Under the pieces are notes generated by a model. That model saw nothing but the letters and a program-made list of their open reading frames with translations, was not told the origin of the DNA and ran no database searches. Positions 43,220 through 61,604 of a stretch of DNA of 64,000 nucleotides are shown piece by piece. This stretch comes from Candidatus Woesearchaeota archaeon (lineage in GTDB: Archaea > Nanobdellota > Nanobdellia > SCGC-AAA011-G17 > UBA489). Location of the stretch: positions 81,345 through 145,344 of the forward strand of contig CAYFJW010000001.1 in the NCBI GenBank assembly GCA_964343875.1. The letters are read 5' to 3'. The position numbers and the translations under genes were made by a program. Numbering within the stretch: position 1 is the first letter of the stretch; every line of letters begins with the position of its first letter.

Positions 43220-44134
43220 ATGGAAGATCTTAGATTCGGGGGAAAGAGTATGCGTTTGGATAAGTTTCTAATGCAGGAATTCCCTTCTGCAACACTGTCC
43301 GAGATCTATAAGTGGATTAGAACGGGTAAAATAAAAGTAGATAGGAAGAAACAGAAACCGAGATATCGCTTAAATCCTAAAGAAGTTGTGAATATATTTC
43401 TAACCAAAACACAAATTGAAGGTTATCAAACAAAGGGCGTTGTACATAAAGTTTCTTTCAAAGTCTTATTTGAAGACGAAGACATACTAATTTTAGATAA
43501 GCCTCCTTTTTTAGCATCCCAAGGAGGAATCGGTGTTAATGAAAATAATTTAGTTAATCAGGTTATTTATTATCTTAAGAAAAATGTTAAGATTTCCCTA
43601 GGAAATAGGTTAGACAAAGATACTTCTGGGATCATACTTCTTGGTAAAAATCCAAAAGCAAATGCCTTAATTTACAACATAACAAAGAGTAGAAGTATCG
43701 AGAAGAAATACTATGCATTGACAGTTGGAAGAATAAGAAAGAAAACTGGAACATTTAAGGATTACTTAGCAAAAGGAACGCGGGATTTCCAACCGGTTAT
43801 GAAAGTTTCAAACAAAAATGATTCCCGTGCCAAATACTGTGAAACAACCTACAAAGTAGTAAAACATATCAAAAACCATTCACTACTAGAACTAACACTA
43901 AAGACGGGCAGAATGCATCAGATAAGGGTTCAATTAGCATCAAGAGGTTTTCCAGTCTTAGGCGATAAACTATATGGAAACGAAAATGAAAACAAAAAAA
44001 CTAAACTAAAAAGACAGTTCTTACATGCTTCCCAAGTAACATTAAACCACCCAATTACAAATAAAAAACTAAAAATCACTTCAGAACTGCCAAAGGATCT
44101 TAAAAAAGCCCTAGAAAAAATCAAAGCTCGATAA
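43220..44134 (+). CDS. RluA-family pseudouridine synthase with an S4 domain
   Basis: S4 start MRLDKFL. Catalytic NRLDKDTSGIILLGK. GRMHQIRVQLASRGFPVLGDKLYG. The true start may be the internal Met at about 43250. Confidence 0.8.
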   Translation: MEDLRFGGKSMRLDKFLMQEFPSATLSEIYKWIRTGKIKVDRKKQKPRYRLNPKEVVNIFLTKTQIEGYQTKGVVHKVSFKVLFEDEDILILDKPPFLASQGGIGVNENNLVNQVIYYLKKNVKISLGNRLDKDTSGIILLGKNPKANALIYNITKSRSIEKKYYALTVGRIRKKTGTFKDYLAKGTRDFQPVMKVSNKNDSRAKYCETTYKVVKHIKNHSLLELTLKTGRMHQIRVQLASRGFPVLGDKLYGNENENKKTKLKRQFLHASQVTLNHPITNKKLKITSELPKDLKKALEKIKAR

Positions 44135-45056: not shown

Positions 45057-45704
45057 ATGCAAAAGAGCGTAGTTCTTGCTCCTGTAGGGGATAACATGGA
45101 AGCCTTGTACGTCGGACTTAGAGACTTTCCTGCAAGCAAAATAATTCTCTTATCTTCTGAAGATCAAATTGAAGAAGCAGAAAAAGCAAGGAAGGAACTA
45201 GAAAAGTTCAGCATACCTGTCAAAATAGTGCCAATTGATGGAAACCCCTGGGAAGGAATCTTTGAAAAAGTCTCAAAACTATCTTCGGAAGAAAAAGAAC
45301 ATGAAGTTGTAGTCAATACTTCGTCAGGCGATAGAAATTCACAATGTGCCATGACCTCAGCAGCATTCGTCAACGGACTAAAAGCATTTGCAGTAATGGG
45401 CGACGAAACAATGCTCCTTCCAATCTTAAAATTCTCATACTACAAAACACTAACAGATAAAAAACTAGATATCTTAAAAGTTCTACACGAAGATAAAACC
45501 TGTTGTAAATCTTTGGAAGAACTAAGTCAAAAAATTAACATGAGTCCTCCATTAGTTTCTTACCATATTAATGGAACACTAAAATCTGAAGGATTAAAAA
45601 CACTTGGCCTAGTTGAAGTAAGTGAGAAAAACGGAAAAATAGCATTGAATATTTCAACCCTGGGTAGACTCCTGATGAAAGGCTACGTTAAGCAAGCCTT
45701 ATAA
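45057..45704 (+). CDS. Csa3-like regulator (N-terminal CARF-like Rossmann domain plus C-terminal winged HTH)
   Basis: VVLAPVGDNMEALYVGLRDFPASKIILLSSE...VVVNTSSGDRNSQCAMTSAAFVNGLKAFAVMGDE parallels the Csa3 CARF domain. The C-terminal wHTH is LDILKVLHEDKTCCKSLEELSQKINMSPPLVSYHINGTLKSEGL. Confidence 0.45.
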   Translation: MQKSVVLAPVGDNMEALYVGLRDFPASKIILLSSEDQIEEAEKARKELEKFSIPVKIVPIDGNPWEGIFEKVSKLSSEEKEHEVVVNTSSGDRNSQCAMTSAAFVNGLKAFAVMGDETMLLPILKFSYYKTLTDKKLDILKVLHEDKTCCKSLEELSQKINMSPPLVSYHINGTLKSEGLKTLGLVEVSEKNGKIALNISTLGRLLMKGYVKQAL

Positions 45705-45862: not shown

Positions 45863-46687
45863 TTAACCCTTATTGACAATATAAAAACACTCATTCCCTA
45901 TTTCAAAATAACTAAACTTATACTTTAACCTTTTAACCATCAGCTCAAACCACTTTCTTCGAGGATTATTCATCTTCCTATTTGAAATGGTCTTTGTTGG
46001 GAAACTAACAACCACGCTCTTAGAGTTAACTTTTTTCAAGAACTCTTCACTATTCTTATGGTCCCCTTTATAATCCAAAACATCGGCCATCTTAAACAAA
46101 AAACAAACATCAAATTTGCCTTTTGGAACCTTTTTCAAATAGTCTCTATCAAAAACATTAACTTCCAACCCCTTTCCAGAGAAATAATAAAGTTTCTTTG
46201 AAAGTTTCAAATAAGAATTAATCAATCTTATATCCTCTTTTCCAACGTCAACGCCCACATACTCAAAGTCATCGAACCCAATAAAAGGCAATGAAAATGC
46301 ATTCAAACCGCAACCAACATCAAGAATCCTTTTAGGTTTCTTAACTTTACTAAAAATCCCTTCATAAACTTCTTCATAAAACTCCTTTCTCTCCCTAGTT
46401 GAAGAATGGCAGTGAAGCATTTCTAAATGTAGTTTGACCAACTCTGCACCACCCCTAGATTTAAGCATGTCATAAAATATTTTGTCCTTTTTACCTTGGT
46501 TACTAATCTGATAAACAGAATAAGTCTTATGTAAAAACTCCTTAACTTTCTTCAAAAAGGACTTGTACACCTTCTTATTTCCCAAATCTTCAGAACCATA
46601 AAGCCCATGGACAATACTCTTAACGTAGGGCCTTCCCAATCTAGAAAATTTCTTAGACCTTAACACATCCTCAACAATTCCTTGCAT
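45863..46687 (-). CDS. FmrO-family (ArmA/RmtB/Sgm-like) putative 16S rRNA (guanine1405-N7)-methyltransferase
   Basis: Hallmark HSSTRER motif, then SAM motif I ILDVGCGLNAFSLPF. Compare ArmA IFDIGCGFNPLAL and Sgm LHASTAERL...VLDLACGLNPLAVPW. Confidence 0.55.
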   Translation of the reverse strand: MQGIVEDVLRSKKFSRLGRPYVKSIVHGLYGSEDLGNKKVYKSFLKKVKEFLHKTYSVYQISNQGKKDKIFYDMLKSRGGAELVKLHLEMLHCHSSTRERKEFYEEVYEGIFSKVKKPKRILDVGCGLNAFSLPFIGFDDFEYVGVDVGKEDIRLINSYLKLSKKLYYFSGKGLEVNVFDRDYLKKVPKGKFDVCFLFKMADVLDYKGDHKNSEEFLKKVNSKSVVVSFPTKTISNRKMNNPRRKWFELMVKRLKYKFSYFEIGNECFYIVNKG

Positions 46688-46780
46688 ACATCTTATTTAA
46701 CAAGCACATTAATATAACTATCTCCTTCAACTTCAAAGTAAATACAAAAACTTTTAAACATCTTTAACAAACAAGTAGCT

Positions 46781-47236
46781 ATGCCTAAAAAGATCTCAAG
46801 AGACATTCCATTAAGTGAAATAACTCTCCGTAGATACGAAAAACCTTACAAAATGCCAAAAAGAGAGGCAACTAGAAAATTATGCCTGTCTCTAGGACTT
46901 TTGCAACCAGGTGATTCTCGTGATGTTGTAGTTGATGTTCTTCAAACAATAGTAGACACAAGCAAAAGAAAGAAAATGATAACTTCTGAAGAAGTCCAGA
47001 AGAAAGTAATTGCGTACAGAAAGAAAAACAGACTAGGCGTTAACGGTGTAGCGGCATCAAACATAAGAAGGCAAATGAAACGTCTAAAAGACTTACAAAT
47101 AATTGAAAAGATAAAAAACGAATATCGTGTAGTCGAATATGAAAACCTAGATACAGTATTTGAAGAAAGAATAAAGAAATATTACTTACCACAAATTCTT
47201 AGTAGGGTTAAAGATTATTGTAAATCGGTCAAATGA
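46781..47236 (+). CDS. Hypothetical protein, possible winged-helix DNA-binding protein
   Basis: 151 aa. An HTH-like segment GVNGVAASNIRRQMKRLKDLQIIEK. No family assigned. Confidence 0.35.
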   Translation: MPKKISRDIPLSEITLRRYEKPYKMPKREATRKLCLSLGLLQPGDSRDVVVDVLQTIVDTSKRKKMITSEEVQKKVIAYRKKNRLGVNGVAASNIRRQMKRLKDLQIIEKIKNEYRVVEYENLDTVFEERIKKYYLPQILSRVKDYCKSVK

Positions 47237-47757
47237 TATACGAACCAAGAGAAGATTCCTTCCTTCTACAAAGAATTGTAAAACAAGAAGTTAACCCCAA
47301 TGATAAAGTTCTAGACATGGGGACCGGATCAGGAATCCAAGCAATCACGGCAGCAGAAATCTCTAAAGATGTAACGGCGTCAGACATCAATCCAGAATGC
47401 ATCAACCAATTAGACAATCCAAAAATAAAAGCAATTCAATCAGACCTATTCAAAAACATCAAGGATAAATTTGACTTAATCATTTTCAATCCACCCTATC
47501 TCCCAAAAGATCCAAATGAGCCAGAAGACTCGGCATTAACAACAACCGGCGGAGAAAAAGGTTCAGAAATAATTGAAGAATTTCTAAAACAAGCAAAGAA
47601 CTATTTAACAAATAACGGAAGAATATTGCTATTGTTCTCTTCTTTATCAGGTAACATAGAAAATATTGCAAAAAGAGAAAATTACAACATAAAAATAATC
47701 ACCAGGCAGAAGTTCTCTTTCGAGGAAATATATGTGGCCTTTTTAAATAACGCCTAA
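47233..47757 (+). CDS. HemK/Mtq2-like N5-glutamine methyltransferase (release-factor methyltransferase)
   Basis: YEPREDSFLL N-terminus, motif I VLDMGTGSGIQAI, catalytic NPPY. Confidence 0.8.
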   Translation: MIYEPREDSFLLQRIVKQEVNPNDKVLDMGTGSGIQAITAAEISKDVTASDINPECINQLDNPKIKAIQSDLFKNIKDKFDLIIFNPPYLPKDPNEPEDSALTTTGGEKGSEIIEEFLKQAKNYLTNNGRILLLFSSLSGNIENIAKRENYNIKIITRQKFSFEEIYVAFLNNA

Positions 47758-61373: not shown

Positions 61374-61430
61374 GCTAAAAGCTTATTTCTCTTTTCTTAT
61401 TTTTTATTTAATTCTAGTTAGAACTCTAAG

Positions 61431-61504
61431 AGGCACTGGCAGGATTCGAACCTGCGAAATAACCGCTCTGCAGGCGGTCCCCTTAACCACTTGGGCACAG
61501 TGCC
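61431..61504 (-). tRNA. tRNA-Cys (anticodon GCA)
   Basis: GGCACTG/CAGTGCC acceptor, anticodon stem ACCGC/GCGGT with loop CTGCAGA, T-arm GGTTCGAATCC, discriminator U73 (Cys identity element). Confidence 0.8.
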
Positions 61505-61506
61505 AG

Positions 61507-61604
61507 CGGACCCGATAGGATTTGAACCTACGACCTTCTGCTCACTTCTGAGTCCGAAGACTTAATAGAAGGCAGACGCTCTATCCAAACTGAGCTACGG
61601 GCCC
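61507..61604 (-). tRNA. tRNA-Arg (anticodon TCT) with a ~23-nt canonical-position intron
   Basis: GGGCCCG acceptor (G3:U70), D-arm GCTCAGTTTGGATAGAGC, anticodon stem TCTGC...GCAGA. The mature loop is CTTCTAA after removal of TTAAGTCTTCGGACTCAGAAGTG. The intron pairs with the anticodon in a BHB-like arrangement. The gene lies 2 nt from tRNA-Cys. Confidence 0.65.

Follow-up and report, generated by a model that had tools for sequence, protein, structure and literature searches.

The subject of this study is a gene at positions 45863..46687 on the minus strand of the window, the 64,000-nucleotide stretch of contig CAYFJW010000001.1 (assembly GCA_964343875.1, Candidatus Woesearchaeota archaeon) that was analysed as a whole. 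The encoded protein of 274 amino acids (aa) is almost certainly a true member of the FmrO family, and its sequence indicates an intact and probably active FmrO/Arm/Rmt-family, S-adenosylmethionine (SAM)-dependent 16S rRNA (guanine-N7) methyltransferase. By analogy with the characterized enzymes, the function favoured here, with moderate confidence, is that of a resident enzyme which constitutively methylates N7 of the G1405-equivalent base in archaeal small subunits. A broader proposal, that DPANN ribosomes of the Woesearchaeota/Nanoarchaeota type carry 7-methylguanosine (m7G) at the position equivalent to G1405, in the form of a constitutive housekeeping modification that is inherited vertically, is offered more tentatively.

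Family assignment, fold and functional residues

The open reading frame (ORF) begins with ATG and is uninterrupted, and its codons were checked against the raw sequence; the assignment draws on the ORF, Pfam and NCBIfam profiles, alignment to RmtC, an AlphaFold2 model and a Foldseek search. The first-pass annotation had proposed an FmrO/ArmA/Rmt-type enzyme from the motif HSSTRER followed at the correct spacing by SAM motif I, and reading of the codons bears out both elements. The HSSTRER motif (aa 94-100; 46388..46408, minus strand; codons CAT TCT TCA ACT AGG GAG AGA) corresponds to H105-R111 of RmtC, and SAM-binding motif I, ILDVGCGLNAFSLPF (aa 121-135; 46283..46327, minus strand), was placed by codon reading and alignment. 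The spacing from R100 to I121 is 20 residues, equal to that from R111 to I132 in RmtC. Across a 203-sequence alignment comprising archaeal, bacterial and reference enzymes, the S, E and R of the HxSTxER motif are invariant, with the H and T nearly so.

Profile searches agree with this assignment along most of the protein. The Pfam FmrO model (PF07091), which the first-pass annotation had named among its checks, scores 67.3 bits (E 1.9e-18), above its gathering score of 27, with aa 46-268 aligned to profile positions 33-253 of 255. The top NCBIfam model is the Rmt-family equivalog NF000466 (151.3 bits, E 3e-44, 253/254 profile positions), and the specific models for RmtC, E, F, D, H, B and G rank next at 40-75 bits. 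In a sequence search of the PDB, RmtC was the best match (E 2e-20, aa 4-272 vs 11-279), followed by ArmA, Sgm, RmtF and RmtB, while NpmA and KamB chains were absent among the matches at E <= 1.

The predicted structure points to the same family. With 23 archaeal homologs as its basis, AlphaFold2 produced a confident model (predicted local distance difference test, pLDDT, 90.7; predicted template modelling score, pTM, 0.87), in which five N-terminal helices precede a Rossmann domain of alternating beta/alpha order. The two domains are helical at the N-terminus (~aa 1-91) and of the class I Rossmann type at the C-terminus (~aa 92-274). Foldseek ranks 1-16 against the PDB were exclusively Sgm, RmtC, RmtB, RmtF and ArmA (E 1e-18 to 2e-13, template modelling (TM) score 0.54-0.84), and the following rank was four orders of magnitude weaker. 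Membership in the Kam/NpmA (adenine1408-N1) family was rejected, given the lack of an NpmA/KamB sequence match and the restriction of the top 16 fold matches to m7G1405 enzymes.

Among solved structures, plasmid-borne RmtC (PDB 6PQB, 6CN0, 8GHU) is the best sequence match, at ~27% identity and with the same two-domain architecture, whereas the window gene is chromosomal in an archaeon and lies outside any mobile context. The best structural match is to the producer enzymes of the Sgm/Kgm type (PDB 3LCU, 3LCV; Foldseek E 1e-18, TM 0.79-0.84), which belong to the same family and share ~20% identity with the window protein (Sgm). Sgm serves self-protection in an antibiotic producer, whereas the window locus has no biosynthetic cluster.

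Functional residues were mapped by a HMMER alignment to RmtC (8ghu_A) and by the 203-sequence MAFFT alignment, with roles keyed to the cryo-electron microscopy structure of RmtC on the 30S subunit (PMC10288597). In that structure Ser107 contacts the SAM carboxylate, Lys204 contacts N7 of the flipped G1405, with K204A abolishing resistance, and residues of the N1 subdomain dock the enzyme on helices h45, h27 and h44. For SAM binding, the window protein carries S96 (RmtC Ser107), R100 (Arg111, within the motif), D123 (Asp134, invariant in 203/203 aligned sequences) and D147 (Asp160), and the HxSTxER and SAM-acidic set is complete (H94, S96, T97, E99, R100, D123, D147). For positioning of the target base, it carries Y59 (Tyr60), K232 (Lys236) and K199 (Lys204); the last is encoded by AAG at 46091..46093 on the minus strand, as read from the codon and the alignment, and is invariant in 203/203 sequences, including 81/81 archaeal sequences, 61/61 distant homologs and 5/5 references.

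Several docking and loop residues also have counterparts in the window protein. The equivalents of the docking residues Lys20, Lys43, Lys47, Arg50 and His54 are K13, K42, K46, K49 (an Arg to Lys change) and H53, and the N1 subdomain positions K13, F14, K42, K46, K49, H53 and Y59, on which HMMER and MAFFT agree, span 46510..46651 (minus strand). Ser239, Arg241 and Met245 of the h44-distorting loop correspond to S235, R237 and M239. Two further positions depend on the alignment: Arg39 of RmtC aligns to K38 (HMMER) or N37 (MAFFT), and Asn248 to N241 or P242. Within the archaeal set (80 GTDB loci and the window, 81 in all), the equivalents of S107, E110, R111, D134, K204, S232 and E273 are invariant in 81/81 sequences, and the D160 equivalent is D or E.

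Distribution and inheritance in the archaeal lineage

The first-pass annotation had already taken the host to be an archaeon. It is of the Woesearchaeota/Nanoarchaeota (DPANN) type, tiny and of a symbiotic kind, and the genes around the methyltransferase are archaeal, among them Cdc6/Orc1, aIF5A, L10/P0 with an RL10P insert, L1, FtsZ and a P1-type stalk protein. Eight contigs from independent samples, the longest of 189 kb, encode the identical 274-aa protein, and GCA_973416385.1 is among their sources. The nearest named relative comes from a Candidatus Woesearchaeota metagenome-assembled genome (80% identity), and the closest relatives overall are Woesearchaeota proteins at 80-85% identity, compared with 24-32% for the plasmid enzymes.

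Relatives of the protein are numerous. A word-indexed search returned 118 homologs, the best ~57 of which are from Woesearchaeota or Nanoarchaeota wherever named. When 1.84 billion cluster representatives were searched exhaustively, 1248 family members emerged at E <= 1e-3, with the best 150 all above 107 bits (bacterial reference enzymes reach ~76 bits in searches of other databases), and a profile of the archaeal clade matched 1589 clusters (90% identity) at E <= 1e-10. A relative was detected in at least 273 GTDB species, with one genome per species scanned using two peptide patterns from 11 sequences; the best 80 of these 273 all encode full-length ORFs (80/80) and are labelled Woesearchaeota, Nanoarchaeota, Nanoarchaeia or the placeholder 'Methanosarcinales'. 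Many of the loci titled 'uncultured Methanosarcinales archaeon' (L008, L011, L013 and others) nest among Woesearchaeota sequences, and one archaeal-clade protein on a 2.5-kb contig (P0288) is labelled Candidatus Taylorbacteria, a bacterium of the candidate phyla radiation (CPR). These odd labels are probably placeholder names or the result of mis-binning. Some members of the clade are already annotated by the Joint Genome Institute as 16S rRNA (guanine1405-N7)-methyltransferase.

An archaeal ortholog of the family was already known. Husain et al. 2010 (PMC2896518) had presented NEQ545, a protein of Nanoarchaeum equitans, as 'the first archaeal ortholog' of the Arm family, and the window protein resembles NEQ545 in being an Arm/FmrO-family protein in a DPANN archaeon of Nanoarchaeota; the present protein thus adds a member in a lineage with a noted ortholog. 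In comparison with NEQ545 as described, its N-terminal domain is less divergent, with all helices present and the K20 and H54 equivalents kept, and where the 2010 report had one archaeal sequence, hundreds of species are represented here. Nanoarchaeum is absent among the 120 matches listed from the archaeal-clade profile search. No description of the size, monophyly or synteny of the DPANN FmrO clade was found in the searched literature, and direct searches on FmrO in archaea or on a Woesearchaeota aminoglycoside-related 16S methyltransferase returned nothing.

The phylogenetic placement suggested in the first-pass annotation was carried out with plasmid RmtC, ArmA, RmtE, RmtF and RmtG as references in an unrooted neighbor-joining tree of the 203 sequences, built on a simple distance. 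The archaeal sequences form one group of 140 (bootstrap 99/100) that excludes all references and bacterial homologs; the window protein lies in a 27-member subclade (bootstrap 97/100). Because the tree is unrooted and based on a simple distance, it allows no conclusion on the direction of an ancient transfer between bacteria and archaea.

Base composition and gene order fit with residence in the host genomes. The GC content of the gene follows that of its locus (r = 0.95 over 81 loci of 30-48% GC), and within the window the methyltransferase gene has 33.5% GC against 36.7% overall. In 48/81 loci the methyltransferase is divergently paired with the same membrane-protein gene, with direct adjacency in 39 and a gap typically of ~62 bp, and genes for a TFS-type zinc-ribbon protein, a thymidylate kinase and an RNase D-like protein lie near the methyltransferase in these conserved-pair loci. 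Pairwise distances of the methyltransferase and this neighbour are correlated (Spearman 0.35, reached by 1/999 permutations). No transposase or integrase was seen at the methyltransferase loci. Combined, the lineage-wide spread, the single archaeal group, the GC match, the synteny and the lack of mobile elements argue for long residence and vertical inheritance rather than recent transfer or contamination, and the gene has the look of a long-inherited housekeeping gene, not of a resistance gene borrowed recently. Horizontal transfer, one of three readings raised in the first-pass annotation, is therefore possible as an ancient event at the base of a large DPANN clade, whereas a recent event is contradicted by spread, synteny, tree and GC.

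The membrane-protein neighbour of the main archaeal clade is ~215 aa long (L006-L083, e.g. L025 104-763 and L033 4611-5264). It has no Pfam match, and a 'SESM' motif resembling that of type I signal peptidases was read in its sequence by eye only.

The closest bacterial parallels in setting are chromosomal FmrO homologs (e.g. P0059 and P0067; Chloroflexi, Ignavibacteria, Limnocylindria), which share 23-33% identity with the window protein and likewise occur off plasmids, in a housekeeping context and in non-producers. They keep Tyr21 in 54/61 and His54 in 58/61 sequences. Unlike the window gene, these homologs adjoin tgt (tRNA-guanine transglycosylase), and once an RsmI-like gene, and they fall outside the archaeal group. 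Direct adjacency to tgt was observed at L089 6908-8843, L090 8001-11484 and L088 1-1394, and L090 has two FmrO genes, with tgt and a TP_methylase (RsmI-like) gene between them. A Tgt coding sequence also precedes the plasmid gene rmtE2. The occurrence of tgt beside both chromosomal genes and plasmid rmtE2 suggests a chromosomal tgt-rmt arrangement as the source from which the Rmt genes of plasmids were mobilised.

Proposed mechanism and competing explanations

The reaction can be outlined by analogy with RmtC. The helical N-terminal domain would use K13, K42, K46, K49 and H53 to dock on the assembled small subunit at its conserved h24/h27/h44/h45 surface, and the C-terminal loop (S235, R237, M239) would distort helix 44 and flip out the G1405-equivalent base. 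Y59 would then stack on the flipped base, K199 and K232 would position it, and its N7 would receive a methyl group from SAM held by S96, R100, D123 and D147. A constitutive role in ribosome maturation is suggested by the lineage-wide occurrence, the housekeeping neighbours and the host-like base composition, and such a role is more likely than a dedicated resistance role. Of the three readings that the first-pass annotation had left side by side, a native rRNA modification enzyme is the best fit to the lineage-wide presence, housekeeping synteny and host-like GC. From the family membership, fold, residue conservation, distribution and synteny described above, we infer that the protein is active, which nucleotide it targets and that its purpose is housekeeping. 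Whatever the purpose, m7G1405 would bring insensitivity to 4,6-disubstituted deoxystreptamine aminoglycosides as a side effect, this modification being described as blocking 4,6-disubstituted aminoglycosides in PMC12933310.

Several observations weigh against constitutive methylation of the G1405 equivalent. The NF000466 score of 151.3 bits is below the curated equivalog cutoff of 250, the NCBI threshold for naming a protein a G1405 N7-methyltransferase, so that functional equivalence is without certification by that criterion; the RmtC model likewise gives 74.5 bits against its cutoff of 550. Phe14 occupies the position of RmtC Tyr21, and Y21F strongly lowers the activity of RmtC (PMC10288597). 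Additionally, the equivalent of RmtC Arg211 is absent (Tyr or a gap, by alignment), the h44-distorting loop is 3 residues shorter than that of RmtC (residues 237-246), and the N2 subdomain is poorly alignable. The larger archaeal subclade, to which the window protein does not belong, has E for K20, L for Y21 and R for H54, a pattern that hints at altered docking; since most members outside its own subclade carry these residues, the window protein is among the more canonical archaeal members. For NEQ545, the catalytic motifs were reported to be conserved, the N-terminal domain divergent and the orthodox function unclear (PMC2896518). No report of m7G at the G1405 equivalent in any archaeon was found in the searched literature, and no 16S rRNA gene was available for inspection of helix 44 after an Rfam search of the window, an exact search for the universal 1395-1409 segment in 90 loci and a 2-mismatch search over 944 kb. 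A housekeeping and a resistance purpose are indistinguishable from sequence alone. The first-pass annotation had missed the score under the NCBI Rmt cutoff, the Phe at the Tyr21 position and the NEQ545 ortholog known since 2010.

A competing explanation, considered unlikely, is that the archaeal clade kept the family fold but was retargeted to another guanine in 16S or 23S rRNA or in tRNA, and so does not make m7G1405. It fits with the N-terminal docking domain being the most divergent part of the protein, with the Tyr21 to Phe change in the window protein and the E, L, R substitutions in most archaeal members, with the score under the equivalog cutoff, and with the strongly diverged N-terminal domain and uncertain function of NEQ545 according to Husain et al. 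(PMC2896518). However, the window protein keeps the equivalents of K20, K47, R50 (as Lys), H54 and Y60 on the docking side, those of the base-contacting K204 and K236, and those of the loop residues S239, R241 and M245, and its model superposes over its full length on Sgm and RmtC. The rRNA surface recognised by RmtC (h24/h27/h44/h45) and G1405 itself (in the 1392-1407 stretch) belong, as far as is known, to the best-conserved regions of small-subunit rRNA across all domains of life, which also speaks against a change of target. Another explanation, judged distinctly improbable, makes the gene a dedicated determinant of resistance to aminoglycosides made by neighbouring bacteria, possibly acquired from bacteria by transfer; the self-protection raised in the first-pass annotation is neither backed nor contradicted by the data. 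All characterized family members confer aminoglycoside resistance, the drug-blocking effect of m7G1405 on 4,6-disubstituted aminoglycosides would follow regardless of the original purpose (PMC12933310), and the bacterial nature of the family outside the DPANN clade makes an ancient bacterium-to-archaeon transfer plausible. Set against this, lineage-wide presence, a single supported archaeal group, host-like GC, housekeeping synteny and the lack of mobile elements are unlike a sporadic, selection-driven acquisition, and no aminoglycoside-biosynthesis or other resistance genes were found near the methyltransferase gene. Aminoglycoside uptake moreover needs respiratory energisation of the membrane; poor uptake has been argued for the reduced, fermentative cells of CPR bacteria (bioRxiv 10.64898/2026.07.13.738296), and by analogy the argument would apply to this archaeon.

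Two further explanations can be largely set aside in favour of an inherited family member. A recent arrival by horizontal transfer, or a bacterial gene placed on an archaeal contig by contamination or mis-binning, might be expected from the typically plasmid-borne or actinomycete origin of the known members and from the CPR label of P0288, but it is very improbable and is effectively ruled out by the shared context, the distribution, the archaeal grouping and the GC match: the gene is embedded between archaeal genes, in identical context in independent samples and on contigs of up to 189 kb, its composition matches, and its nearest relatives are Woesearchaeota proteins (80-85% identity, against 24-32% for the plasmid enzymes). 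A coincidental HSSTRER motif in an unrelated Rossmann methyltransferase, the outcome against which the first-pass annotation had cautioned, has next to no likelihood. The generic Pfam models Methyltransf_11, 23, 25 and 31 do give weak matches (22.2, 17.0, 16.0 and 15.9 bits), but each is under its own gathering cutoff (21.2-27), and coincidence is refuted by the strong full-length matches to FmrO, the Rmt models and RmtC and by a fold search whose leading matches are m7G1405 enzymes only.

Neighbouring genes and wider meaning

Upstream of the methyltransferase, a 93-bp A+T-rich divergent intergenic region (46688..46780) contains putative TATA-like elements, picked out by eye at ~25-35 nt before each start codon: TTATATTAA on the side of the methyltransferase and CTTTTAAA on that of the opposite gene. 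The latter (46781..47236, plus strand) encodes a basic 151-aa protein that has no Pfam match, is syntenic in 6 loci of the window's subclade and could be a DNA-binding regulator. It is followed by a gene for a 174-aa MTS/HemK-like methyltransferase with an NPPY motif (47233..47757, plus strand; Pfam PF05175, E 1.6e-13), syntenic in 5 subclade loci and probably a translation-factor or rRNA methylase. The window's subclade shares these two upstream genes instead of the membrane-protein pairing of the main clade.

Directly downstream, a 215-aa protein (45057-45704, plus strand) combines an HFX_2341-like/Csa3-like Rossmann N-terminal domain with a winged helix, the architecture of a CARF-like regulator, and no CRISPR-cas genes were seen near it. 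Four genes from the methyltransferase lies a 304-aa pseudouridine synthase with S4 and PseudoU_synth_2 domains (43220-44134, plus strand), an architecture that we take to be of the bacterial RluA/RluD type. Elsewhere in the window, a tRNA match at 61507-61604 (minus strand; Rfam 58.8 bits, model positions 1-71 over 98 nt) adjoins a tRNA-Cys (61430-61504); ARAGORN made no call at 61507-61604, and the match is probably an intron-containing archaeal tRNA.

For surveys of resistance genes, these findings carry a caution: FmrO matches in metagenomes can be chromosomal archaeal housekeeping genes and not mobile resistance determinants. If the enzyme does make m7G1405, the findings also bear on the choice of antibiotics for enriching or curing DPANN co-cultures, on ribosome tuning in genome-reduced organisms, and on the still unclear origins of the clinically important Arm/Rmt genes. 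Constitutive m7G1405 in DPANN ribosomes, if true, would give the Arm/Rmt family its first natural role apart from resistance and would be the earliest case of m7G1405 known from Archaea. A whole archaeal lineage would then have intrinsic insensitivity to drugs of the gentamicin and kanamycin classes, and the clinical 'resistance' methyltransferases would trace back to ordinary enzymes of ribosome maturation in uncultured microbes of low GC content. Overall, if the modification is made, an uncultivated branch of the archaea would modify its decoding centre as multidrug-resistant pathogens do, within its normal biology.

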